NCBI GenBank assembly: GCA_038886535.1
Contig: JAVZXS010000001.1
Location: 180,636-244,635, forward strand
Length of the DNA stretch: 64,000 nucleotides
Direction: 5' to 3'
From: Candidatus Micrarchaeia archaeon
Lineage (GTDB): Archaea > Micrarchaeota > Micrarchaeia > CABMEP01
Positions 13,114-34,978 of the stretch are shown here, piece by piece. A program made the translations under genes and the position numbers. The first letter of the stretch is position 1. Each line of letters begins with the position of its first letter. The notes under the pieces are model-generated. The model had not been told where the DNA came from, did no database searches, and saw nothing but the letters and a program-made list of their open reading frames with translations.

Positions 13114-16100
13114 GTGGCTGGTTTAAATCTGAGAATATTTTTTATTTTTTTTATCGTTTTGTTCAATATAAATTATGGTTTATCTTATCTCAATAACTGT
13201 AGTAATTTAAATATTAATGGTGAAACTTATATCCTGACAACTAACGTTTCTTCAACAACTATCTGCTTTAACATATCAGCCAATAATATAACTCTTGATT
13301 GCAATGGGAATACGATTTATAGCTATAATAATGCAGTAGCTAATGCTTCAATAATTACAAATGCTGCGTTAACAGGTATTGTCATTAAAAATTGTAATTT
13401 TATTGGAAATGATTCATACATTCTTTTTTTCCCATATGGTAATTTAAATTCAAAACTTATTAACAATTCATTTAAAAACTGTTATTATTGTAGTTGGATA
13501 CAATCTGATAATAACATTTCTATAATTAACAATTCTTTTTATAATTCTAGAAATGCGATTCATTTTGTTGGAACTAGTGGTTTCAACATCTCTAATAACC
13601 TTTTTTCAAACATCAGCTCCAGATCTATTTCTGCTGGTGGGTTAGATTCTAATCCAAGTTTAGTTAAAGTAATCGAGAACAATTTCTTCCTCAATACTTA
13701 TAGAGGAATTTATAATGGTATGACTTTGACACATATCAATTCAAATGAATTCTATAATTGTGGAGAATATTGTATTTATTTAGCTTCTGCACAAAACAAT
13801 TCAATTTTTAATAACAATATAAGTAATTATTCAATATATGGCTTAATTTTGGATTCATCGTTAGGAACTAATATATCTACAAACATATTTAATTCAACTG
13901 TAGGTAGTGCTATAGTTTTAAGAAGTAGTGATGTAATTTCTGTTTTTAATAATACGATATATGGTCCTTTGATATTAGAGAGCTCTCGGAATGATACTAT
14001 ATTCAACAATACAATTTTGACTGCAGGAATAGCATTACACGCCTATTCTCCCTATTATGAAAACGAGAATAATCAAATATTTAACAATTCAATAGTTAGT
14101 ATTGATTCTTATGCTATTCGATTAGTTAGTTCTAAAAATAACTTAATCTATAATAATATACTGAAAGGATCTGTTCCAGTAGAAGTCGTTGACACTTTAT
14201 ATACTAATTATTGGAATACAACAATTAATTGTTCTGGCGCGAGAAATATAGTTGGCGGTCCGTGTATTGGAGGTAATTTTTATTCTAACCTGAATGAGAC
14301 AGGTTTTTCAGAAAACATTAATGTATGTTCACCACAGTCAAATAAAATATGTGGAAATTCATATACCATACAAACTAACAATATTGATTATGCACCAATA
14401 ACAAATCGTTTGTTAGCACCATCTTGTAGTTCACAATTAAATGAACCAAATACGATTTATATTATGTGGAGTTCTCAAGTTACACCTGGGACGTGTTATA
14501 CAATTACAGCAAATAACGTTACACTCGACTGTAAAGGATATACTATTACATATGCTACAGGATCTAATTATGCGTATGGAATATATTCTGGTGGCTATAA
14601 TAACTCTGTAATTAAAAACTGCAAACTTATTCAAAATACAGCTCCAAGAAATAATGCACATGGAATTTGGTTTGCAGGAAGTTCAAATAATAAAGTTGAA
14701 AATGTTTCTATAAATATTGTTGGAAATCAAAGCAACGGTATTTATTTAACTTATTCTTGGCCCAATCCATCTAATTACAATTTTATTAAAAACACAACTA
14801 TTACTATGTCAGGAGTGCAAGGTCATGGTATAGATATTTATGGATCTTATAATAACTTCTCAAATATTTCAATTGTAACAACTGGAATGTATGGAAATGG
14901 AATTAATTTCGATCCTTCTTCAGATTCAAATTACAACATATTTACAAACATGTCAGTAAAGGATACAGGTTCTTATTCCTTTGCAATTCAATTGCGTGGT
15001 AATGATAATAGATTCTATAATAATTTAATTAATAGTAGTTCTACTTCTCCAGTTTCAGTAACATCTGGTTCTAATTCATTTAATACAACGCTTACAATGG
15101 GAACAAATATAATTGGCGGTAATTATATTGCCGGTAATTTCTGGGCAACTCCTTCAGGAAACGGTTTCTCTGAAACATGTACAGACAATGATGGAAACGG
15201 GATCTGTGATGCAACTTATACTATCAATTCAGATAACATCGACTATCTCCCGCTTGCAGTTCCTCCAATTCAGTTAACAAGTTGCGGTACTCTTGATAAG
15301 ACAGGAAAAACGTACTTATTAATTCAAAACATTACTACCTCTAATGATTGTTTTATAATAAATAAAAGTTATATAACGCTAGATTGTCAGAATAATACTA
15401 TTACAGCAAATAGAGGTGTTTTGATTGGCTTTCCAGGACGGGAAAGTTCTTCAAATATAACCGTTAAGAATTGTATAATAAACAGTGCTTATGATGGAAT
15501 AGACTTAGGGGCTTGGAGTTATAATACTAATATTACTATTTTAGGAAATAAAATTATTAGTCAATATGCGAATGGTATCGCTTTTGGAACTGTAGCAGGT
15601 TCTAATATTAATATATCTAATAATATAATTTATTCCCCTAGATGGGGGATCTATATAGTCAGCGGTTCAGGTTATATAACAAACAATACAATTGTTCAAG
15701 TAGACTGCAATTATGGAGGATATCCTCCTTGTGGTGGTTTAATTTTATATGGTGGTTCAAATTTTAATATATTACATAATTTTATAAACTCAACAAACGC
15801 ACACGGTATTGTTTTTGCAGATTACTTAGGAACTACAGCAGATAACAACTTAGTTATCAATAATCTTATTTATACTAATTATTGTGGTTTTCGTTTTCAA
15901 CCTTATAGTAAATGTGGAGCAAGGAATAATATCATAGCTAATAGTACTATTATAGCAATTGGTACAAACAGCTGTGGAATATATTCAGACTGTCCAATAA
16001 ATACTACGTGGTCTAATATTACAATCAACTCTGAAGGAACAGATTTTATTTCATTATATTCAATAAATAATACTTATTTTAATGTAACATTCAATTCTTC

Positions 16101-19100
16101 TTTCTACCCAACTAAGGTAAGTTTTACTCATAATGGCAGCATTAAAATAAATTCAGCTGATGCAGTTCCTTCTTCAGGATACTACAATGTTTCCAAATAC
16201 CTTAACATCACAAACTCAACACCTGCATGGGTATACATTAATTTCACATACTCAAACGATACAATAGGAGAAAATGAAACAAAACTCAAACTCTATAGAT
16301 GGGATGGGTCTGCATGGAATGAAGTTCCAGGAAGCGGAGTAGATACTGATAATAAGATAGTTTATGGAAATATTACACAATTCAGCATATTTGCTCCACT
16401 TGCAGTTGCAGATGCGATTCCCCCATCAATTCAATTGATATCTCCTGAAAATGATACATATACAAACCAAAACAGTATGACCTTCATTTTCAATGCAACA
16501 GATGATCAGAGTTCTACATTAAACTGCAGCCTTTACATAAATAATGAAATTAACCAGACAAACGAAAGTTTTGTAAATGGTTCAGTTACTTCGTTCTCAT
16601 TGACAAATATTGCAGATGGATATTATACATGGTACGTTAATTGTTCTGACGCTTCTGGCAATAGCAATGTCTCAGAAACAAGAACATTTACAATTGACAC
16701 AATTCCTCCATCAGTCTCTATCACATCTCCATCTTCAAATTCATATCTTAATTCAAAGATAATAACAATAACTGGTACTTCATCTGATCTAAATTACAAT
16801 TTCACAAACATCTCAATCTGGCAGGGAAGCACACTAATTAATTCAACAATCACAACTAGTACTTCATGGTCAGTCCAGCTTGCAGCGCAGGATGACGGAG
16901 TATATAGCATAAGTGCTGTTGCATATGATCTTGCAGGTAATGAAAATTCAAGCAATATAACAGATATAACAATAGATACTACCATACCTCAGGTTACAAT
17001 TATTTCTCCATCGCAATCATCCCCGATTTATTTGAGGAGCAGCGTTCCAGTCCAACTTAAATTCAATTACAATGAAACCAATCCTGCAAACTATACAGCT
17101 CTACTAATAAACAGTTCAGGACAAAGAGTATCAAACATATCAGAGAGTTTAGCTATTAGTGGTGATGTGAATATTACGGCATCACTGTCAACTACTGGAC
17201 TGCCTAATGGAAACTATTCAATCAATGTTACAATTTTTGATAAAGTAGGACACACTGTAACTGTCTCAGAGATCAATAATGTAATTATAGATAATGAAAT
17301 ACCTGGTGTAATAATTAATTCGCCTTCATCTGGCCATTATATTATAGGAGACACAATAGTTTTGAATCTTACAATATTTGATGACAATCTCAATTACACT
17401 CAAATCACGATCTATAACGCATCAGAATCTATTCTAAATTACACCACTAATCAGTCTGGAACATTTACAATAAACTTCACTCTTCCAGATGATATATATA
17501 CAATAAATGTAACCTCCTTTGATCTGTCTGGAAACAATGCAACCGCAACTGTCACTGGTGTAGAATTAGATTCAACATCACCATTCTATCTAAATAACTG
17601 CTTGGACATAACAATGCCAGGAGAATACTATCTTGTAAATAATATTTATTCAACTAATGTCACTTGTATATTCATAGATGCAGATAACGTGACTGTTGAT
17701 GGTCAGGGATATGAAGTACGCAACCTTGGAAACCCAATTATTCCGGGAATATTTGTACAGGATAGGAAAAACATTACGATTCAAAACATAATAATCTCTC
17801 ATTATGATCCAGATATTCAAATGATTAATGTAACTGATGCAAAGATTTACAACGTAACACATAATGGAGGACAAATTGAAATTATATATACTGATGCAGA
17901 AATTAAGAATTCAAGATTTGAGAATAGCAGTTCAGAAGGTATGGTTGCAAATCTTTCAAACATTATCATAAATAATACAATTATCAAAAATAGCCAATCT
18001 GATACATTATATATATCATCTTCTAATGTAAGCATTTTAGGCTCACATATTCAGAACTCTAATGGAGTAAAAGGCATTTCCATTTCTGGACAAAACAGCA
18101 TAATATCAATAGCATCATCAAGTATTATTCTGCAAACAGCAGACAATGCAGATGTAATTGATGTTGATGTTTCATCAACAGATAACCTATATCTATCAAT
18201 TTCAGATTCAAACGTAAGCAACCAAAACAGTTTCATACATTTAAGAAATTCAGCTGGTTTTGAATCCAAGAATATTTCAATTAATGTTTTCAGAAACAAT
18301 ATTTTCAACTTCTCAAAAATTATATCTTCAGATTCACCAGTTAATGGATCAGGAAAGATCTTATTAACCAGTGATATTCATGGAAACTACTGGGGAAGAT
18401 CATCTTACCCATATGTGAATTTATCAGACTTCCAAAATGTTTCAGATGTCTCAGATGAGCTTCCTTATAAAGAAGCAGATGGATGGAATAAGGAAGCAAG
18501 ATTCAGATTAAATTCTTCAAGCTATAATTTTGCATCAAAAGATGGAAAGCTGTCAATTTTAATGCCATACAACCCATCCTCACCAAATGACAATCTTGTC
18601 TTAAGCAGGCTAGAAAATGAAGTCTTCGTAATAACAGATCTTCCTTTAATGCATTTAGCTGCTGAAAACTCAATAGTAAATGCAAGATTGCACTATTTAT
18701 TTGGAACTTACGAATCTGTGTATTTGCCAGTTGAAGAAAGAGAAGGCCTACTTTTAGTAACTCCGTTACCTATTGAAATCAAGGTAAATCTTTCAGATGA
18801 TTTCAACACAAGTGAAGCAGATGATATTTCCTCAATTGAATTCGATGAAAATGGATTTATAAAAGATCTCGGTGGAAAATTCGTTTTTGACTCAAATGAA
18901 GAATCTTTCAAGCTAAAGCTTAACATCATTAATGGTTCAATTGATTTCTTAATAGGAAAGAAGGAATCAGATCTTATACTTTTTGACAATGTAAGCCCAA
19001 CAGTCTCTCTACGTCAATCCGGTTCTATAGTTATTGCAGATTATTTAGATCCATTACAACAAGTGATTCAGAGAAATGATGGAAGAGGCAATGCTTATAA

Positions 19101-21270
19101 GGAAGTGAATTCAGATCAAATTATTCCATTGTTCCTGCCAAATGGGGCAATGGTCAGTAATGCAACGATGACACTTTCACCTCTCTCAGGAACTCCTTCA
19201 TTCAACGTTTCAATCTACTTAAGAAACAACGTGACTTCATTATCTTCAGCTGAAAGATATTACTTTAATGAAATCTCTTCTCTCTCTTCACCTATTACGT
19301 TAGACTTAACTTCAAGTATGCAATCAGCTCTTGGAAATTGCAGCCAATTGCATAATGGTTCATATTGTTTATTCTATATCAGTATCAATGGTTTGAATGA
19401 TGGAGAATTCAATATTTCAGAATTCAATTTCAATTATTCATATTCATCTGGAATCAAGTTGCCAGATGTAAATACCAGTGGTACAATTACATCTCTTGTG
19501 GAAATACCAAAGCATGAACCAGATGTTTTCTATCTAAGCGATGGAGGAACTGATGTCCTAGTTATTTCATTGCCTTTCAAGTCATACATAAAATCAGCAC
19601 AGATAACATTAAGTGGAGAAGAGTGGGAAGGCTCTTATCCATCTAATGTCAATATGTGGATAGGAAACGGATCAACATCACCCAGAACGCCATTTGTTAC
19701 ATATTCTGGTGAATTCAATACTTCCATACAAATAATTGCACCATTTGTTTCTGCTTTAAGGAACTATACATCAAGCGCAGATGCTGACCATAAAGGTAAT
19801 GTCCTAATACCATTAACACTTAATTCATCAACAAAGGGTAAGGTCAGGATCAGTTCTATAAGTGTTGATTATGATTTAAGAAATGCATACGATTTAAACT
19901 CTCCATCGTATATCTATGGATTCAATGATGGAAGTGAAGTTAAAACAGTAACATTTACAAACTCCTCACCATCTACAATCCTCTATATAGATATTCCAAA
20001 GTATTCCAGAGTTTCAAACATCTCAATCATATCAAGCCCTTCAGAGAACATTACATTCAATATTGACTTCCTAAACGATGGAGTTATAGAGATTGAGAAT
20101 AGTACAATGATAAGGCAACTCAATCTTACTCAATACCTACAAAATTGTTCTCCATACAAATTTAGAATTCCATTTGGAAGATTGTGCAAGGTTGCAATTA
20201 ACATAACAGCCAATCTTGATGCGTATCCAAATGTTTATTCAGATTTCGAAGTTACAAGTTCATTTATCTCAATGCCTTGGCGATATGCCGGATCTGATTC
20301 AGAAATAATAAGAGAAAGCGAAAAGAGGTTTGACTTTCTTACTATCCCAACTGGAGCTGCCAAGCGTGCAAGGTCTCTATCATTAGAGCACCGTTCAATC
20401 TACTCATTACAATCAGGTGATATTGTTATCGGCTATGGATTAGATATGGCTGGAAATAGAGGAAGTGGCAATTATACATTTATAGTTGCCGGCCCACCCA
20501 CTCCACCAGCAATAACTCCACCATTAACAAAGATTCCATTATCTGGATGGATGAATTGTACTAATTCATTAGCATATGTAATAACAGAACCAGGTGCTTC
20601 AGTTACTGTTTTGTTTAGGTCAAGCGGCATGTTTGTTACAGGAGGAACAGCGGATTCAAATGGAAGATTTGAGTTTATGCCTTTATTGAGTGGAGACTAT
20701 ATTATCCGTGTATCTAAATCAGGATTTGAAGATAATCAAATTACACTTACTGCAAATATTTGTATTGTTGAGACGCAAATTTCTACAAAGAAGTCACTCA
20801 TCTGTTCTCAAGATAAGTGCAGTATTAATCTTTATCTTGCAACAAACAAGATTTCAGACTTCCAGTTCAGGCTTACAGACTTTATACCGTCGCAAGTAAT
20901 AAAAACAGTTAATTCGATAGTTGACAGATTCGGAAAGGTGTTCTATAGTTATAGCTATACAGATTCTTTAATTTCTATTCCATCCACTCAGAAGATAACG
21001 AGTACATTCTCAGTTATATTAGATACGGTTTTGACCGCTATTCCAAACTACATTGAAAATGAAAATAAATTCATATATTCAATAACTAATACTGCTGCAG
21101 ACGTTGAACTTGATGAGATTATAATACCATTGCCTGAAAATGCAAAAGGAAAGGAAATTGCATCAATCGAGTACATTGATGCAGACGGTTCAAAGATAAA
21201 TATAACGGATTACACAGTGGAATATGACAGGATTATTATCCACCAGTCAGTGATTATTAAGAAACAGTAA
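13114..21270 (+). CDS. Giant (2,718 aa) secreted surface protein built from tandem right-handed parallel beta-helix modules, Ig-like domains and a carboxypeptidase-regulatory-like domain, with very many N-x-S/T sequons
   Basis: Signal peptide MAGLNLRIFFIFFIVLFNINYG. PbH1-type repeats such as NNSIFNNNISN and NNTIYG recur. Four modules open with C..C...(I/V)TLDC. Three Ig-like repeats follow (DTIPPSVSITSPSSNSY, DTTIPQVTIISPSQSS, DNEIPGVIINSPSSGHY). A PPTPPAITPP linker precedes the C-terminal domains. The uninterrupted 8.1-kb ORF in AT-rich DNA is itself strong evidence of coding. Confidence 0.8.
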   Translation: MAGLNLRIFFIFFIVLFNINYGLSYLNNCSNLNINGETYILTTNVSSTTICFNISANNITLDCNGNTIYSYNNAVANASIITNAALTGIVIKNCNFIGNDSYILFFPYGNLNSKLINNSFKNCYYCSWIQSDNNISIINNSFYNSRNAIHFVGTSGFNISNNLFSNISSRSISAGGLDSNPSLVKVIENNFFLNTYRGIYNGMTLTHINSNEFYNCGEYCIYLASAQNNSIFNNNISNYSIYGLILDSSLGTNISTNIFNSTVGSAIVLRSSDVISVFNNTIYGPLILESSRNDTIFNNTILTAGIALHAYSPYYENENNQIFNNSIVSIDSYAIRLVSSKNNLIYNNILKGSVPVEVVDTLYTNYWNTTINCSGARNIVGGPCIGGNFYSNLNETGFSENINVCSPQSNKICGNSYTIQTNNIDYAPITNRLLAPSCSSQLNEPNTIYIMWSSQVTPGTCYTITANNVTLDCKGYTITYATGSNYAYGIYSGGYNNSVIKNCKLIQNTAPRNNAHGIWFAGSSNNKVENVSINIVGNQSNGIYLTYSWPNPSNYNFIKNTTITMSGVQGHGIDIYGSYNNFSNISIVTTGMYGNGINFDPSSDSNYNIFTNMSVKDTGSYSFAIQLRGNDNRFYNNLINSSSTSPVSVTSGSNSFNTTLTMGTNIIGGNYIAGNFWATPSGNGFSETCTDNDGNGICDATYTINSDNIDYLPLAVPPIQLTSCGTLDKTGKTYLLIQNITTSNDCFIINKSYITLDCQNNTITANRGVLIGFPGRESSSNITVKNCIINSAYDGIDLGAWSYNTNITILGNKIISQYANGIAFGTVAGSNINISNNIIYSPRWGIYIVSGSGYITNNTIVQVDCNYGGYPPCGGLILYGGSNFNILHNFINSTNAHGIVFADYLGTTADNNLVINNLIYTNYCGFRFQPYSKCGARNNIIANSTIIAIGTNSCGIYSDCPINTTWSNITINSEGTDFISLYSINNTYFNVTFNSSFYPTKVSFTHNGSIKINSADAVPSSGYYNVSKYLNITNSTPAWVYINFTYSNDTIGENETKLKLYRWDGSAWNEVPGSGVDTDNKIVYGNITQFSIFAPLAVADAIPPSIQLISPENDTYTNQNSMTFIFNATDDQSSTLNCSLYINNEINQTNESFVNGSVTSFSLTNIADGYYTWYVNCSDASGNSNVSETRTFTIDTIPPSVSITSPSSNSYLNSKIITITGTSSDLNYNFTNISIWQGSTLINSTITTSTSWSVQLAAQDDGVYSISAVAYDLAGNENSSNITDITIDTTIPQVTIISPSQSSPIYLRSSVPVQLKFNYNETNPANYTALLINSSGQRVSNISESLAISGDVNITASLSTTGLPNGNYSINVTIFDKVGHTVTVSEINNVIIDNEIPGVIINSPSSGHYIIGDTIVLNLTIFDDNLNYTQITIYNASESILNYTTNQSGTFTINFTLPDDIYTINVTSFDLSGNNATATVTGVELDSTSPFYLNNCLDITMPGEYYLVNNIYSTNVTCIFIDADNVTVDGQGYEVRNLGNPIIPGIFVQDRKNITIQNIIISHYDPDIQMINVTDAKIYNVTHNGGQIEIIYTDAEIKNSRFENSSSEGMVANLSNIIINNTIIKNSQSDTLYISSSNVSILGSHIQNSNGVKGISISGQNSIISIASSSIILQTADNADVIDVDVSSTDNLYLSISDSNVSNQNSFIHLRNSAGFESKNISINVFRNNIFNFSKIISSDSPVNGSGKILLTSDIHGNYWGRSSYPYVNLSDFQNVSDVSDELPYKEADGWNKEARFRLNSSSYNFASKDGKLSILMPYNPSSPNDNLVLSRLENEVFVITDLPLMHLAAENSIVNARLHYLFGTYESVYLPVEEREGLLLVTPLPIEIKVNLSDDFNTSEADDISSIEFDENGFIKDLGGKFVFDSNEESFKLKLNIINGSIDFLIGKKESDLILFDNVSPTVSLRQSGSIVIADYLDPLQQVIQRNDGRGNAYKEVNSDQIIPLFLPNGAMVSNATMTLSPLSGTPSFNVSIYLRNNVTSLSSAERYYFNEISSLSSPITLDLTSSMQSALGNCSQLHNGSYCLFYISINGLNDGEFNISEFNFNYSYSSGIKLPDVNTSGTITSLVEIPKHEPDVFYLSDGGTDVLVISLPFKSYIKSAQITLSGEEWEGSYPSNVNMWIGNGSTSPRTPFVTYSGEFNTSIQIIAPFVSALRNYTSSADADHKGNVLIPLTLNSSTKGKVRISSISVDYDLRNAYDLNSPSYIYGFNDGSEVKTVTFTNSSPSTILYIDIPKYSRVSNISIISSPSENITFNIDFLNDGVIEIENSTMIRQLNLTQYLQNCSPYKFRIPFGRLCKVAINITANLDAYPNVYSDFEVTSSFISMPWRYAGSDSEIIRESEKRFDFLTIPTGAAKRARSLSLEHRSIYSLQSGDIVIGYGLDMAGNRGSGNYTFIVAGPPTPPAITPPLTKIPLSGWMNCTNSLAYVITEPGASVTVLFRSSGMFVTGGTADSNGRFEFMPLLSGDYIIRVSKSGFEDNQITLTANICIVETQISTKKSLICSQDKCSINLYLATNKISDFQFRLTDFIPSQVIKTVNSIVDRFGKVFYSYSYTDSLISIPSTQKITSTFSVILDTVLTAIPNYIENENKFIYSITNTAADVELDEIIIPLPENAKGKEIASIEYIDADGSKINITDYTVEYDRIIIHQSVIIKKQ

Positions 21271-25606: not shown

Positions 25607-26083
25607 TCATTTCTTTGTTTTCTGGATAAGCTGTTTTTCAACATACTCAAGCTTGTTTGCAAGTTTTTCTATTTCTTTTCGTATCAATGAGATCTCACTA
25701 GAAATTTTAGTTTTAAATTCTGTAGTTTTTCCTGCTTCTTTTATTGATTCAAGACGTTCATTAAGTCTTTCTAATGTCTTTTTAGAAGCAGAAAGATCGT
25801 ATAAAATCATGTTTTGGAATGCCTGTGTAGTTATCGGAATTATTACGGGTTTGAAGCCACTTATGCTTTCTATTTTTGCTTCTTCTATCTTCTCTGCCTG
25901 CGCGGTCTCTTTTGCAATCTTCTTTACCATTTTCTTAAGCGTACTAAGATTTAGCATTCTAATATCTGTTTTTTTGAGTATTTCATCTTTAAGTTCTTCC
26001 ATCTTTGCTTTACTTATTTTCTTTGTTTTTACTCCCTTAAGAAAAGCGACAATTATTTCACGAGTTTTTTGATCTATCTCCAT
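25607..26083 (-). CDS. Hypothetical coiled-coil protein
   Basis: 158-aa charged ORF. Confidence 0.4.
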   Translation of the reverse strand: MEIDQKTREIIVAFLKGVKTKKISKAKMEELKDEILKKTDIRMLNLSTLKKMVKKIAKETAQAEKIEEAKIESISGFKPVIIPITTQAFQNMILYDLSASKKTLERLNERLESIKEAGKTTEFKTKISSEISLIRKEIEKLANKLEYVEKQLIQKTKK

Positions 26084-26183: not shown

Positions 26184-27353
26184 CTAACAGAAAAAAGAGT
26201 TTAGAGAGACCTGAATCCCTCTTTGCGATATTTCCTTTAAAAGTTTACTTTCTTTTATCCAATCTTTTATTTTAATAGTTAATCTACTATTAACATATCT
26301 TAATGTTTCTTTTAAAGTTTGGAATTTTACAGGCTCTTTCTTTAGTGCTTCTCTCACACATTCTCTTGTTAACCATACTCCAAGTGGTATGTAATCCTTG
26401 TATGCCTCTCTAAGGATTATTACAGCTGCCTGCTTTTTCTTTTTTTCAAGTAATTCACTTACTGCAAGTCTACAGCTGTAGTAACATCCTCCTATTAATG
26501 CGTATTCTTTTTTCTTATGATAAAGTTCATAATCGCTGAATATATCCACTTTAGTGCCATCTTCTGAATAAAACGCCTCCATAGATTCATAACTCCATTG
26601 CTGGGGAATAAATATTATAACAAATTTATTTCTCATATGTTCATATTCGTAAACAAGGTACTCCTCTAGTTGCGGATATTCTCTTATATTTTCCAGCATT
26701 CTTTCGCTTATTGTACTATCAACCGCTGTAATCGACCACCTAGTTGGAACGAGTTTTCTATTTTTCTTTAATCCAAATGCACCTACACTTAAGGCTCTTT
26801 GAATTGCACTAACGTTTACACCTTTTTTATACAATTCAAATACTGCATCAGATGCCTTTAGGTCTGTATCGTAATACATTTTCTCTATTTTTTCATCGTA
26901 TTTACTGTTGCCAATGTACCAATTTTTTATTGGTGCGGAAGGACCAAAAGGCTGCAATTCTTCATGGAAAAATCCTCCAGTAGGCTTCTTTGCAAATTCA
27001 AGTTCTACTTCAGTTGAAAATTTTGAAAGCGCAATATCTCTAATATTGTCAATGAATCTATTTTCTTCTTTTATTCCGACTAACTTTTTACCTCTTACAA
27101 GCTGAAGCCTTAGATTTACAATCTCTTCAGGATTTGACATTTTATTTAACCAACATTCCGGTAGATCCATTATTTTTGTATCACCATGCAATGGTGGTGT
27201 CATAGGTCCGACATAAACTTTTGGATAACCATAACTGCCTATAAATACAGAAGGAGGAGTTGCTCCATCCATTTTTTCACTTACGTCTACTGATTTGAAG
27301 AATCTTGTCTTTTCGTATATTCTTGCAAGAAGTGCAGCCTTTCCCTTTATCAT
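26184..27353 (-). CDS. Putative Nre-family DNA repair protein with a C-terminal PCNA-interacting (PIP) box
   Basis: 4 bp downstream of the XPF gene. The C terminus QVSLNSFF fits PIP consensus Qxx[LIM]xxF[FY]. Family assignment (Nre_N/Nre_C) is from memory and is inferred. Confidence 0.45.
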   Translation of the reverse strand: MIKGKAALLARIYEKTRFFKSVDVSEKMDGATPPSVFIGSYGYPKVYVGPMTPPLHGDTKIMDLPECWLNKMSNPEEIVNLRLQLVRGKKLVGIKEENRFIDNIRDIALSKFSTEVELEFAKKPTGGFFHEELQPFGPSAPIKNWYIGNSKYDEKIEKMYYDTDLKASDAVFELYKKGVNVSAIQRALSVGAFGLKKNRKLVPTRWSITAVDSTISERMLENIREYPQLEEYLVYEYEHMRNKFVIIFIPQQWSYESMEAFYSEDGTKVDIFSDYELYHKKKEYALIGGCYYSCRLAVSELLEKKKKQAAVIILREAYKDYIPLGVWLTRECVREALKKEPVKFQTLKETLRYVNSRLTIKIKDWIKESKLLKEISQRGIQVSLNSFFC

Positions 27354-27357
27354 AGAT

Positions 27358-28059
27358 TCACTCTTTATTAGAATGTATAAGCAGATATACTCTTTTTGCT
27401 TTTGCCTTTCCTATTACTCTCTCAATCTCCTTTATATCAGAAGTGAAGAATCTTTCTAAAGTTCCAAATTCCTGAAGTATCTTTTCTGCTGTCGATGGCC
27501 CTATTGATGGAAAGGATTGAAGAACCCTTAACTGTTCATCCCTAAATGAAAATGTTTTAGTCTTTACCAAGAGTCTTAACGGTCGTGATTCTTGCATCTG
27601 TTCTTTTTTTGCTATTAAGGATATGTATTTTGCAGTTTCTTCAATATTTTTTGTGTTTATTACATGAATTCCGTAATTCATTATAATCGAGAGATATGCA
27701 CCTATAAATGCGTTTTGTCTTATTCTTTCTGCCTTCATATGTCCTTCTATTATAAGAATAGGGATCTCATAGTTCTCACTCATTTTTGTTGCCTGTTCAA
27801 AAAGACGATTATCTATTATACTTGACTCGAAATCACTTGAAGTTTTTCTTTCTATTACTATTCGATTCGATATGATAATATCTCCGATTTCTAATTGTTT
27901 TAAGTTAACTTTTATGTCATGTTTTTCTACTAATTCTATAAGTTCTTCAGATTCTCGAGAATCAATAAAAATTTCAACATTCTTTTCTTTATAAAATTCA
28001 GATATTTGGGACTGTTCTACTCTTTCGTATTTACTTTGTTCATTCTGTTCTTTTTCCAT
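27358..28059 (-). CDS. xpf: Short-form XPF/ERCC4 structure-specific endonuclease (nuclease plus HhH2)
   Basis: ERCC4 motif GDIIISNRIVIERKTSSD (GDxn-ERKxxxD). C-terminal tandem helix-hairpin-helix LQSFPSIGPSTAEKILQEFG. Confidence 0.75.
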   Translation of the reverse strand: MEKEQNEQSKYERVEQSQISEFYKEKNVEIFIDSRESEELIELVEKHDIKVNLKQLEIGDIIISNRIVIERKTSSDFESSIIDNRLFEQATKMSENYEIPILIIEGHMKAERIRQNAFIGAYLSIIMNYGIHVINTKNIEETAKYISLIAKKEQMQESRPLRLLVKTKTFSFRDEQLRVLQSFPSIGPSTAEKILQEFGTLERFFTSDIKEIERVIGKAKAKRVYLLIHSNKE

Positions 28060-28121
28060 AGGTAAAATTTAGATTTGATATTATTAATCTTTTCTATACT
28101 AAACTTCTAGTGATCTGAGGA

Positions 28122-28847
28122 TTAAACTATTCTTGACAATTCCTCTATTTCTTCGAAGCTTATCGAACAGCCATTGAATTTTAGAGCATATAAAGCAGCT
28201 TTGTAAGCTTCTCTCTCAAGATCTCCAAATTTCTTGAAATACCCTTTAGATTTTGCAAGTGCAAGAATCTCACTGCTTCTTATTACATTTATTCCAGCTG
28301 TCATCTCTCTAAATCTTCTAAAAAGGAGGTCATTAATATTCATTTTAATTCTAAATTCATTTTCTATGTGCTTTTTTAATTCAAATGGTGATTCTATGAG
28401 CATTCTTGTAGTTCTTTCATCCATCAACACAAATCCAACTTTATTATCTATTGCTGTAGCTAGCATCTCTGCTTCCCCATGATTAACAAGATGAAAGGGT
28501 CTATCTGTGTAGAACATGTTATTTGTGACTCTGAGTATCTCATCATAAGTACTTTTTTCATACTTTCCAATTCTAAATGCTCCAGATTTGAGTGCTCTTT
28601 TTATTCTTATTGCTGAAAATGCATATTCTGGTTTTTTAATTGGAGTGTTTATACTTTCATCAATCACCCCTTCAGTAATGATGAGATCTCCTTTTATCTC
28701 TTTTCTTAACATCATGAGTGCACCTAAAAGACCAGCATCCGTAAGAGAAATAAGCGAAGATGAATCACAAACTACTGAATTTGGATTTATTCGCCTTTCT
28801 CTATCTTCTTTAAAATATTCTGTTCTATCAATATCTTCTCGTACCAT
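28122..28847 (-). CDS. PIN-domain nuclease-like protein with C-terminal extension
   Basis: N-terminal VVCDSSSLISLTDAGLL fits the PIN first-strand/Asp pattern. Confidence 0.45.
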   Translation of the reverse strand: MVREDIDRTEYFKEDRERRINPNSVVCDSSSLISLTDAGLLGALMMLRKEIKGDLIITEGVIDESINTPIKKPEYAFSAIRIKRALKSGAFRIGKYEKSTYDEILRVTNNMFYTDRPFHLVNHGEAEMLATAIDNKVGFVLMDERTTRMLIESPFELKKHIENEFRIKMNINDLLFRRFREMTAGINVIRSSEILALAKSKGYFKKFGDLEREAYKAALYALKFNGCSISFEEIEELSRIV

Positions 28848-29425
28848 TAAGATACCTCTTTCTTATTTCTTTCTTTAAGAATTTTCTTTGCAATATTAAA
28901 TCTTTCTTTAGCGCTTATTGTTCTTCCTACTCTATCAGACATCACTGTCTTACCTGAATAATTAAGTACTTCTTGTTTTTGTGCACCTGTTATTGAAATA
29001 GTTCTACTTAGTGACAGACCTTGTGCATATAGACTTGCAGCTATTTTTGTTCTTCCTTTTTCTATTATACCGATTATATATCTTTTATCTTTTTCATCAA
29101 AATCTGTAATTGTTTCAAGTGTTTTCCATACAGAACTTATCAGTGCAATTTCATCCTTAGATTTTGCAAATTGAACCGCCTGTGTAAGATTAATGTCTAT
29201 CTTTTGATATAGGGAAGCATTTCTAAATCTAGCCTTTACGAGAATCTTAGAAAGAGTATAGGAAAGTAAAGCTAGTGTAAAGAATAATTTTTCATCAAGA
29301 AGAATATTTTTTTCACATTTATTGTTAATTTCCCTTAATTTTTTTATATCATAATCCTTAAATGCGAGCTTGATCTGATTTATACATTCTATCATTTCTA
29401 GTTCCTTATTTATTTCTTTTATCAT
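28847..29425 (-). CDS. Hypothetical protein; its stop overlaps the start of the PIN gene
   Basis: ORF translationally coupled to the downstream PIN gene. Confidence 0.4.
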   Translation of the reverse strand: MIKEINKELEMIECINQIKLAFKDYDIKKLREINNKCEKNILLDEKLFFTLALLSYTLSKILVKARFRNASLYQKIDINLTQAVQFAKSKDEIALISSVWKTLETITDFDEKDKRYIIGIIEKGRTKIAASLYAQGLSLSRTISITGAQKQEVLNYSGKTVMSDRVGRTISAKERFNIAKKILKERNKKEVS

Positions 29426-29495: not shown

Positions 29496-29620
29496 TTTTT
29501 GGAAGCGAAAAATGTCGCTTCGACGTAAAAGAAAAAGCAAAGCTTTATAAATCTTAACTGTCATGATAGTATCATGACACATAAATTAGAATCATGATTG
29601 GTATGGTTCCAATCGTGATC
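29496..29620. promoter_or_regulatory. Cluster of inverted repeats in a divergent intergenic region (hairpin GAAGCGA-n7-TCGCTTC; perfect 21-bp palindrome TGTCATGATAGTATCATGACA; imperfect ATCATGATTGG-n7-CCAATCGTGAT)
   Basis: Palindromes read directly from the sequence. They share a TCATGA core and lie upstream of the winged-helix regulator gene. Confidence 0.5.
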
Positions 29621-29741: not shown

Positions 29742-30257
29742 ATGAAACCACAAGAAAACAAAAATGAAGAGTTCGAAAATACGCTTGAATACAAGGTTGC
29801 GAATTTCAAGAAAGAGGCAAACGAAGAAATCGCAGCTCTTGAAAGAGAGATCGCTAAGCTAAGAGATCCCACCGTCCATTCCGCTCTTATGTATCTTTCA
29901 GTTAAAGAAAAGGAGAACACTAATCGATTATTAAAAAATATATACGCGAGGCTTGACCAGCTCGAGGAAAAATTGAAGCAGATGGAACAGAAATTAAGCA
30001 GCGTTGGCACTGTACCCTCAAATTCAGCGCCAGCGCTCTTGCTCTCATCAGTTGATCAAAAGATAATCGATTACATAAAAGAAAACGGTCCCTCCTCTGC
30101 AGAGACCATACAAAAGGTTTTTGCATACAAGGGAAGAAATGCCGCATCTGCAAGATTGAATAAACTTGCAACATTCGGCTATCTTGTAAAGCAGAGGGCA
30201 GGAAAAGTAATTTATTATGCTTACCCAGATAATCAAAGCGAGGCGAATTTGAGGTAG
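29742..30257 (+). CDS. Winged-helix DNA-binding protein (N-terminal coiled coil, C-terminal wHTH), in a compositionally atypical segment
   Basis: C-terminal DQKIIDYIKENGPSSAETIQKVFAYKGRNAASARLNKLATFGYLVKQRAGKVIYYA is wHTH-like. Local GC is visibly higher than the flanks. Three overlapping minus ORFs here are antisense noise. Confidence 0.55.
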   Translation: MKPQENKNEEFENTLEYKVANFKKEANEEIAALEREIAKLRDPTVHSALMYLSVKEKENTNRLLKNIYARLDQLEEKLKQMEQKLSSVGTVPSNSAPALLLSSVDQKIIDYIKENGPSSAETIQKVFAYKGRNAASARLNKLATFGYLVKQRAGKVIYYAYPDNQSEANLR

Positions 30258-31609: not shown

Positions 31610-32590
31610 ATGAGAATAACACTTTCAGATGGAAGAGTATTAGGTATAGAAACATCTAAAGATGCAGATATAGTGTATATATCACATGCTCATTCTGATC
31701 ATTCTAGAAAGGGAAACATATTTTCATCGCAGCAAACCTTCGATCTTCTTAATTTAGATGGAAAGACGTCGATATTACATAAAATAGATAAAGATGTTAA
31801 TCTATACCCTGCAGGACATATTCTTGGCTCTACTCAAATAGAATTTACAAATGGCCATTCGGTTGTATATACTGGAGATATGAAACTTAGAGAAGGTTTT
31901 ACTAGTGAGAGAGCAGAAATAATAAGATGTGATGAGTTACATATAGATTGTACATTTGGCCATCCTGATTTTGAATTTGATTCAAAAGAGGTAATTGCTG
32001 ATAGAATAGACAGATGGACAAGAACAAGGTTAATGGTCGGGAATAATGTAGTTTTTGGAGCCTATTCAACAGGAAAGGCACAGGAGCTTATCTATATATT
32101 AAACAAGTATTCAAATATTACTCCTGTCGTTGATCAAAGCATAGAAGAAAAATGTAAAATATACGAAAAATATGGAATAAGGCTTGATAGAGTTGTTATT
32201 GGTAGTAAAGAAGCTGCTGAAATAATGAAAGATAAGTTTGTTTATATAATTCCATTTAATCTTGTTAATCCACAATCCGAAAAATGGTTAACTACTCAAT
32301 ATAAACAAGTTTCATTTGCAATTGTTACAGGTTGGGCTAAGAAATATAGATATAAGTATCATGCTTTTCCTTTAAGCGATCATGCAGGTTTCTCTGAAAT
32401 ATTAGCTTATATTGAGGAGTCTGATGCAAAAGAGATTATTTGTCATTATGGAAATGCTATGTTTATGAGTAAATACTTACGCTCAAAAGGTTATAATTCA
32501 TTCACAGATAAAGAATGGGAATACAGAAATAGATTTAATGAACCTTTAACAAAAAGTTCAATTAAAGAACAATTAACGATTTCAATTTGA
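31610..32590 (+). CDS. Metallo-beta-lactamase fold, beta-CASP-like hydrolase (putative nucleic-acid processing nuclease)
   Basis: HxHxDH motif ISHAHSDHS. C-terminal PLSDHAGFSEIL resembles beta-CASP motifs. Confidence 0.5.
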   Translation: MRITLSDGRVLGIETSKDADIVYISHAHSDHSRKGNIFSSQQTFDLLNLDGKTSILHKIDKDVNLYPAGHILGSTQIEFTNGHSVVYTGDMKLREGFTSERAEIIRCDELHIDCTFGHPDFEFDSKEVIADRIDRWTRTRLMVGNNVVFGAYSTGKAQELIYILNKYSNITPVVDQSIEEKCKIYEKYGIRLDRVVIGSKEAAEIMKDKFVYIIPFNLVNPQSEKWLTTQYKQVSFAIVTGWAKKYRYKYHAFPLSDHAGFSEILAYIEESDAKEIICHYGNAMFMSKYLRSKGYNSFTDKEWEYRNRFNEPLTKSSIKEQLTISI

Positions 32591-34294: not shown

Positions 34295-34978
34295 TTGCCA
34301 AATAACAAAAAAGATGAGAAACTAGATATTCAAGAGGAAACAGCTTCTTTTTTAGACATTAATCCAAAAGAGATGAAACGTTCTCTAATTTCAAATATAA
34401 AGAAACAATTAATTCTTTTTTCTATATCTCCCTTTACTACAGATGTCGTTCTTTCATATAAAATAGTCTATGATTTTCTAACTTCAAATCCAAATAAAAA
34501 GGCAGTATGGTTTTCAATCGACAAGCCAGTTAACAAAGTTGTTAAGGAATTCAAAGATAATGGATTTGATATTCAAGACCATAGCGAAAGAATAATCTTT
34601 ATTGATGCAATTAGTAAACCAATTGCAGATTCAAAGAATAATAAAAATTTTACTGTCAACTTTATAGAAAATCCGGACAATCTAGTTGAGATCTCAATGA
34701 CGCTTCAAGATATATTTTCCGATCCGGCAATTGAAATTGCAGTGATTGATTCTTTAAATGGACTTCTCGCATTCAACAGTGAAAAAAATGTGTTAAAATT
34801 TATGCGTTTCTTATCAACTATTGCAGAAGAAACAGACACAGCCATTATATCAGTTTTTTATAAAGATGAATATCCTAAGGAATTAGAATCAGCATTTCAA
34901 ATTCCTTGTGATGGATTGCTTCAAGTAAACGAAGATAAAATAGTCTTAAAAAAGAAATTAGAGACAATAACAATTTGA
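34295..34978 (+). CDS. Hypothetical protein, possibly a degenerate KaiC/RecA-like domain without a Walker A motif
   Basis: Weak resemblance only (AVWFSIDKP...IIFIDAIS). Confidence 0.3.
   Translation: MPNNKKDEKLDIQEETASFLDINPKEMKRSLISNIKKQLILFSISPFTTDVVLSYKIVYDFLTSNPNKKAVWFSIDKPVNKVVKEFKDNGFDIQDHSERIIFIDAISKPIADSKNNKNFTVNFIENPDNLVEISMTLQDIFSDPAIEIAVIDSLNGLLAFNSEKNVLKFMRFLSTIAEETDTAIISVFYKDEYPKELESAFQIPCDGLLQVNEDKIVLKKKLETITI

Follow-up and report, generated by a model that had tools for sequence, protein, structure and literature searches.

A conserved gene trio of a helix-turn-helix protein, a PIN-fold protein and a PIP-less XPF in Micrarchaeota, with NreA as a local neighbour

In a 64,000-nt stretch of contig JAVZXS010000001.1 from a Candidatus Micrarchaeia archaeon (the whole stretch is called the window here, and positions are counted from its first letter), four open reading frames (ORFs), all on the minus strand, fill the interval 26184-29425. 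Their products are a protein of 192 aa, a PIN-fold protein of 241 aa, a short XPF of 233 aa and an Nre protein of 389 aa, the last ending in a PCNA-interacting peptide (PIP). The original prediction had described this four-gene set, and its position and strand proved correct, as did the 4 bp between the end of the XPF gene and the start of the 389-aa gene, and the presence upstream, on the same strand, of a PIN gene and a gene of unknown function coupled to it by a TAATG overlap. The prediction went on to read the set as an XPF-Nre repair module, in which Nre may supply the PCNA contact that XPF lacks and PIN is an added nuclease. Does the locus encode such a module, and which of its genes belong together? 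The answer that emerged is that XPF and Nre, two known repair genes, came to lie side by side recently and locally. Judged from gene order, the deeply conserved unit is the trio of the 192-aa protein, PIN and XPF, which lies opposite a divergent winged-helix gene. With about even confidence, we read the locus as a conserved Micrarchaeota trio operon, encoding a UPF0175-like helix-turn-helix (HTH) protein, a PIN protein and a PIP-less XPF, into which NreA was recently inserted, and in which a domesticated PIN unit would act with XPF in repair.

Conservation of the trio was followed in 80 metagenomic loci carrying the best-scoring relatives of the PIN protein, at 88% to 38% identity. Of the 64 loci with room for it, 49 had XPF no more than 150 bp downstream of PIN, and another 7 had it at a greater distance. 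On the upstream side, the 192-aa gene was no more than 150 bp from PIN in 60 of 67 loci. The median gaps were 4 bp for XPF after PIN and 7 bp for the 192-aa gene before PIN. The PIN gene and its upstream partner, which had been described as additions to XPF and Nre, are thus present as described, but they are conserved partners of XPF rather than add-ons. No published description of the trio was found in the searchable literature. As applied to XPF-Nre, the notion of a module is not supported beyond the window's narrow clade.

The distribution of the XPF-Nre pairing was surveyed from both sides. From the Nre side, 80 species-level genomes were sampled, including Methanobacteriaceae, Methanothrix, Bathyarchaeota, Aenigmatarchaeota, relatives of Thermoplasmatales, several Micrarchaeota and others, and all ORFs within ±8 kb of Nre were searched with the window XPF. 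No XPF/Hef homologue was present at 77 of these 80 loci across the archaea, the Micrarchaeota loci L012, L025 and L055 included. The only two loci with an XPF homologue near Nre share 90% identity or more with the window. From the XPF side, 43 of the PIN-relative loci hold XPF with at least 700 bp of downstream sequence. Nre follows XPF in 2 of the 43 (L084 and L085) and also in the truncated locus L082. In 11 of the 43, a homologue of the 158-aa coiled-coil protein encoded beyond NreA in the window comes directly after XPF, and Nre is absent. XPF-Nre linkage was seen only in L001, L002, L006, L082, L084 and L085, and the two genes are 4-7 bp apart in the closest relatives alone, the distance being 68-80 bp in L084 and L085. 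Three loci (L091, L092 and L094) keep the flanking synteny on both sides without Nre. Because the linkage is confined to one clade and the flanking synteny is kept where Nre is absent, the most economical account is an insertion of Nre between the XPF and coiled-coil genes in the ancestor of the window's narrow, genus-level clade. The survey showed no conserved pairing beyond that clade, and it did not bear out the idea that the two genes form a linked module in which Nre provides the contact with PCNA. The ancestral operon may have included a fourth gene, that of the 158-aa coiled-coil protein.

The identity of the 389-aa protein is not in question. In hidden Markov model searches it matched Pfam Nre_N (PF04894) with 7.1e-87 and Nre_C (PF04895) with 1.5e-36, both far above the gathering scores, and NF041387 (NreA_Halo) with 1.2e-59, under the equivalog cut-off. 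It is a full-length Nre protein, with archaeal homologues in the thousands, and like haloarchaeal NreA it is missing the optional N-terminal Cys4 module. Its C-terminus is QVSLNSFF plus one Cys. The PIP is kept in the nine closest full-length NreA orthologues, down to 60% identity. A strict regular expression found it in 49 of 81 Nre proteins, these being from the 80 genome loci across archaea plus the window's own locus, and most of the remaining proteins had near-matches. Because the motif is conserved in orthologues, the NreA PIP is not a chance match, and the description of the protein as Nre-like with a canonical terminal PIP was sound. A C-terminal PIP is a published hallmark of NreA, and nearly all archaea encode such an NreA (MacNeill 2016, PMC4929162); NreA with a terminal PIP is already known and is not a new feature. 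The window protein shares with known NreA (Giroux and MacNeill 2016, reviewed in PMC4929162) the Nre_N and Nre_C domains, a length of about 400 aa, archaeal distribution and a C-terminal Qxx[LI]xxF[FL] PIP; the sole difference is its position directly after an XPF gene in this clade. No report of XPF-Nre linkage was found in the literature searched, the published Nre linkage being that of NreB with SplB-like genes (PMC4929162).

Published work on NreA bears directly on whether XPF and NreA could form a functional pair, with the NreA PIP bringing the PIP-less XPF to PCNA and PIN as an added nuclease of the same module. NreA of A. fulgidus interacts with PCNA in a two-hybrid assay, and in Haloferax (Hfx. 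volcanii) deletion of the PIP phenocopies deletion of nreA in mitomycin C repair (PMC4929162). This need of NreA for its PIP, the 4-bp gap in the window, the combination of an XPF without a PIP and an Nre with one, and an adjacency that holds down to about 72-78% Nre identity are all points in favour of such a pair. We nevertheless consider it very unlikely. Besides the absence of XPF/Hef from the surroundings of most Nre genes, Nre follows XPF at only 2 of the 43 Micrarchaeota loci, although the XPFs are all PIP-less. Further, the Haloferax nreA deletion is additive with a hef deletion and epistatic with uvrABC (PMC4929162), which argues that NreA acts in a different pathway from the XPF-family nuclease. 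Given the clade-restricted adjacency and the additivity of nreA and hef, an obligate XPF-NreA partnership is unlikely. NreA would instead work through PCNA as it does elsewhere, its co-transcription with XPF being a local convenience. Taken singly, NreA and XPF are ordinary, and finding them side by side here adds little to existing knowledge.

The absence of a PIP from XPF itself was confirmed and proved to be general. The 233-aa protein matched Pfam ERCC4 (3.1e-28) and HHH_5 (2.6e-08) and has no helicase domain. Its best solved relative is the Aeropyrum pernix XPF 2BGW (1.5e-38 over residues 29-223, covering the nuclease and the tandem helix-hairpin-helix domain, (HhH)2). The GDx(n)ERKxxxD motif reads IGDIIISNRIVIERKTSSDF in the window XPF, and D33, D60, R71 and K72, which lie within or just upstream of this motif, are invariant in 57 of 57 orthologues; by sequence, the enzyme is predicted to be catalytically intact. 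The C-terminus, ...RVYLLIHSNKE, carries no PIP. With the pattern Qxx[LIMV]xx[FYW][FYWL] applied to the last 30 residues, a canonical C-terminal PIP was found in none of 54 complete Micrarchaeota XPF orthologues and not in the window XPF. The original description of a short XPF with an ERK nuclease and HhH2, and without a terminal PIP, therefore holds. The possibility that the 192-aa, PIN or coiled-coil protein carries a PIP on behalf of XPF was rejected, as there is none in these proteins. The sole PIP-like match among the partner proteins of XPF was an internal QLDILSFL in the near-identical loci L110 and L111, which was judged to be chance. Many of the more distant Micrarchaeota XPFs (L102-L161) end, after (HhH)2, in an acidic Y-x-x-E-E-D-like tail, which could be an interaction motif. 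The XPFs of the window's clade are without it, and that clade appears to have lost it.

Archaeal short XPF is understood as a PCNA-dependent enzyme; Roberts et al. are said to have found in 2003 that crenarchaeal XPF depends on a C-terminal PCNA-binding tail. The Micrarchaeota XPF resembles the crenarchaeal short XPFs of A. pernix (2BGW) and Sulfolobus in having ERCC4 and (HhH)2, no helicase and an intact ERK motif, but differs in lacking the C-terminal PIP and in sharing an operon with a PIN nuclease pair. That a PIP-less XPF travels with the PIN pair in Micrarchaeota suggests that XPF is targeted, or finds its partners, in another way there, and the conserved PIN pair would be the obvious candidate partner for such targeting.

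Neither the PIN protein nor the 192-aa protein was placed in a significant family by its own Pfam or NCBIfam scan, and profile searches of the two families against PDB sequences gave no match. Structure prediction was more informative for PIN. The AlphaFold2 model of the 241-aa protein had a predicted local distance difference test score (pLDDT) of 91.7, and most of its top Foldseek matches were VapC/PIN structures (5x3t_B, E 6.5e-4, probability 1.0), the leading ones including VapC, VapC20, Nob1, PAE0151 and Utp23. The PIN core spans about residues 24-165 and is followed by a helical C-terminal extension (residues 170-241). The PIN label given to this gene was thus correct, and the gene first called hypothetical is its 192-aa partner. 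A precomputed database annotation places PF11848 (DUF3368), as an unmarked hit, on the exact PIN protein and on most of its homologues. All 92 orthologues have E64, E125, D143, E144, R148, E152, R190, S191, G226 and C227, and 91 of them have D28. Because the acidic active-site residues are invariant in 91-92 of 92 orthologues, the PIN protein is likely an active nuclease; the precomputed annotation would make it one of the COG2405/DUF3368 type, a group of VapC-like PIN domains.

The 192-aa protein is all-helical in its AlphaFold2 model (pLDDT 87), with an N-terminal bundle, a small HTH and a C-terminal helix; the conserved HTH segment is EKGRTKIAAxLYAQGLSL..TGAxKxEVLNYxGKT. Foldseek of this model against the PDB gave nothing better than E 0.5. 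Its family numbers 696 representatives (E<=1e-3, 50% clustering), and the best 150 listed are mostly about 170-200 aa long. Among 67 diverse members, UPF0175 was the most frequent Pfam match, being found in 21, at a weak level (E<=1, best 3.9e-4). UPF0175 occurs exclusively beside COG2405 PIN proteins, with which it is predicted to form an antitoxin-toxin pair (Matelska et al. 2017, PMC5499597).

This likeness raises the question of whether the 192-aa/PIN pair is a true type II toxin-antitoxin (TA) system, with a UPF0175 antitoxin and a COG2405 toxin, that is a chance neighbour of XPF and has no role in repair. COG2405/DUF3368 PINs are predicted toxins with UPF0175 exclusively alongside (PMC5499597), the antitoxin-like gene comes first and overlaps the next by stop and start, and the 21 weak UPF0175 matches lie in its family. 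As in UPF0175-COG2405 pairs, a PIN fold of the VapC group follows an HTH protein, here one whose family is weakly UPF0175-like, with overlapping genes. Other properties set the window pair apart from such systems. Both proteins of the pair (192 and 241 aa) carry extra domains and far exceed the length of typical members. The pair is chromosomal, single-copy in the window, and conserved vertically and in synteny in Micrarchaeota over the 80 loci to 38% identity, rather than sporadic or mobile; no relatives were found among 72,556 plasmids or among viral contigs, and no paralogue within the window. The two modules form a single polypeptide in three independent clusters (P0332, P0368 and P0412), one of them from Woesearchaeota. 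The fusion was confirmed on two contigs of Woesearchaeota type (L162, 6001-7290; L163, 6001-7254), where it is 417-429 aa long. The pair is also linked to DNA repair genes, and the conserved operator described below goes with a separate winged-helix gene, not with the antitoxin-like gene. A genuine TA system is therefore quite unlikely in our estimate. The fusions and the lack of plasmid or viral relatives and of a paralogue argue that the 192-aa and PIN proteins are a stable two-subunit cellular factor and not a classical mobile TA system.

The 192-aa/PIN pair stays tightly coupled outside the XPF-linked clade, and there its neighbours change. In L165/166, FEN1 (477.8 bits) is immediately upstream of the pair, with overlapping stop and start. 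In L162, a Rad3/XPD helicase (278.8 bits) is upstream of the fused pair, with Ogg and PolX nearby. After one small ORF downstream of the pair there is an Mre11-like phosphoesterase in L164, and, in the same position after the fused pair, a HerA-like ATPase in L163. A SpoU methyltransferase and GNAT lie beside the pair in L167 and L169, the pair is inside a RuBisCO/AMP-pathway operon in L170, and unrelated genes surround it in L172. Of the 7 distinct non-XPF contexts, a small sample, 4 have DNA repair or replication genes as same-strand neighbours; by a rough estimate, this would occur by chance at about 1e-3 if some 4% of genes belong to this class. These linkages to FEN1, XPD, and Mre11-like and HerA-like proteins recur, and offer a lead for two families, that of the 192-aa protein (about 700 clusters at 50% identity) and that of its PIN-fold partner.

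The same contexts bear on a further explanation, that the pair is a housekeeping RNA-processing nuclease of DPANN, acting for example in rRNA or tRNA maturation, whose adjacency to XPF is inherited gene order. The closest structural matches, VapC20, Nob1 and Utp23, are RNA-cleaving PIN domains; L165, L167 and L169 have a SpoU RNA methyltransferase next to the pair, L164 has ribosomal protein S2 there, and the L170 pair is within a metabolic operon. Against an RNA substrate, the recurrent same-strand neighbours XPF, FEN1, XPD, Mre11-like and HerA-like proteins are five DNA repair or replication enzymes, the run of repair contexts outside the XPF-linked clade has the low chance estimate given above, and a repair-type nuclease of the beta-CASP class occurs in the same operon in 10 of 32 loci. 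We regard RNA processing as possible, although it is not what we would expect.

The beta-CASP nuclease of the window, 326 aa, is a relative of the ligase-associated DNA damage response exonucleases (TIGR04122, 5e-42, below the family cut-off), with weak PDB matches to CPSF73, Apollo and SNM1A. The 10 loci just mentioned are Micrarchaeota loci in which it is downstream of XPF on the same strand; the gaps are 22-35 bp in L117, L118, L152 and L155. In the window its gene is 2.2 kb upstream of the operon, on the other strand.

We propose that the 192-aa and PIN proteins would form one two-subunit nuclease, descended from a TA-like UPF0175-COG2405 pair and now a vertically inherited cellular factor. 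Its HTH subunit may bind nucleic acid, restrain the PIN active site, or both. The PIN unit would act with an XPF homodimer on branched or damaged DNA, where it could make a second incision or target XPF in place of PCNA. The gene identities, the conservation pattern, the fusions, the invariant active-site residues and the operator motif are observations; complex formation, a DNA substrate and cooperation with XPF are what we infer from them.

Several points weigh against this proposal. Contact of the PIN unit with XPF or with DNA is deduced from gene context. The 80 PIN loci possibly represent one class, so that their conservation may partly reflect shared ancestry, and DPANN genomes are tightly packed, so that short gaps alone are no proof of coupling. 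Most characterised VapC-type PIN domains cut RNA. PF11848 was not recovered for the PIN protein by hmmscan of the current Pfam-A, even at E<=10, a discrepancy that may be a version or model difference. UPF0175 gave no match for the window 192-aa protein itself, the similarity at the family level being weak. Finally, SpoU/GNAT, RuBisCO/AMP-pathway or unrelated genes make up the surroundings of the pair in 3 of the 7 non-XPF contexts.

If the proposal is true, the pair would be a clear example of a TA-type PIN module recruited to a cellular housekeeping role. A bolder version, which we think unlikely, holds that the pair is a domesticated TA module serving as a DPANN-wide repair accessory for whichever structure-specific enzyme a lineage uses, namely XPF in Micrarchaeota and, in other lineages, FEN1, XPD, or Mre11-like and HerA-like proteins. 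The Micrarchaeota pair would take the place of PCNA in tethering XPF and, together with NreA and the beta-CASP nuclease, make up a compact crosslink- or fork-repair machine under a dedicated winged-helix regulator. An analogy may be drawn with the eukaryotic paired-nuclease systems XPF-ERCC1 plus XPG and XPF-ERCC1 plus SNM1A, in that an XPF-family nuclease is encoded with a PIN-like nuclease and sometimes with a beta-CASP nuclease. The PIN protein is of the VapC/COG2405 group and not of the FEN/XPG group, and the likeness to these eukaryotic systems is one of composition, not of homology.

The winged-helix gene opposite the trio encodes a 171-aa protein with an N-terminal coiled coil and weak matches to ArsR/MobC winged-helix (wHTH) domains at residues 106-164, and is a candidate transcriptional regulator. 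Of the 35 Micrarchaeota loci with enough upstream sequence, 24 have a homologue in divergent orientation upstream of the 192-aa gene, and homologues are also found in loci where the PIN pair lies elsewhere. Between the divergent genes of the window is a perfect palindrome, TGTCATGATAGTATCATGACA, with the core dyad TCATGA-N5-TCATGA. The 21-mer occurs once in the window against 0.01 expected, and it is exactly kept in L002, L006, L082, L084 and L085, even in relatives whose proteins are only about 70% identical. Of 172 loci (1.68 Mb), 46 hold the core dyad, each in exactly one copy; the 77 Nre-only loci have none. In 37 of 41 loci with room, it is beside the start of the wHTH gene, including L105 and L165/166, in which the wHTH gene does not adjoin the PIN pair. 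From this placement, the dyad is most likely the operator through which the wHTH protein regulates its own gene. It would be positioned, in Micrarchaeota, to control the PIN-XPF operon as well, and the wHTH regulator probably controls both divergent transcription units through it. The dyad gives a way into the study of transcriptional regulation in organisms not yet open to genetic manipulation. A non-coding RNA in the enlarged intergenic region was considered and rejected: Rfam gave sub-threshold, hairpin-like microRNA matches only, and these were caused by the palindrome.

Features of the locus and its surroundings, with positions in the window
Feature	Position	Strand	Remark
158-aa coiled-coil protein gene	25607-26083	-	homologue right after XPF in more distant Micrarchaeota
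389-aa NreA gene	26184-27353	-	4 bp after XPF gene
PIP box QVSLNSFF	26190-26213	-	NreA residues 381-388, then Cys and stop codon
233-aa short XPF gene	27358-28059	-	62 bp after PIN gene
241-aa PIN-fold protein gene	28122-28847	-	ATG overlaps stop of 192-aa gene by 1 nt (TAATG)
192-aa protein gene	28847-29425	-	first gene of operon
21-bp perfect palindrome TGTCATGATAGTATCATGACA	29559-29579		shared divergent promoter region, candidate operator
171-aa coiled-coil and winged-helix protein gene	29742-30257	+	divergent from operon
326-aa metallo-beta-lactamase/beta-CASP nuclease gene	31610-32590	+	TIGR04122 match

The setting of the locus is chromosomal. The window is AT-rich, at about 32% GC, and MCM, tRNA genes, an aminoacyl-tRNA synthetase and a large surface protein are encoded nearby. 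The 241-aa PIN protein is 100% identical to P0121, a protein of a Candidatus Micrarchaeia metagenome-assembled genome. The large protein, a 2718-aa ORF at 13114-21270 on the plus strand, has NosD/beta-helix and several bacterial Ig-like domains and is probably a surface or adhesion protein, of a type often met in DPANN symbionts. Another gene, at 34295-34978 on the plus strand and a few kb from the repair genes, encodes a 227-aa KaiC/RecA-superfamily ATPase (PF06745, 1.1e-07), which is possibly RadB-like; homologues of this ATPase were also detected in L006 and L085.

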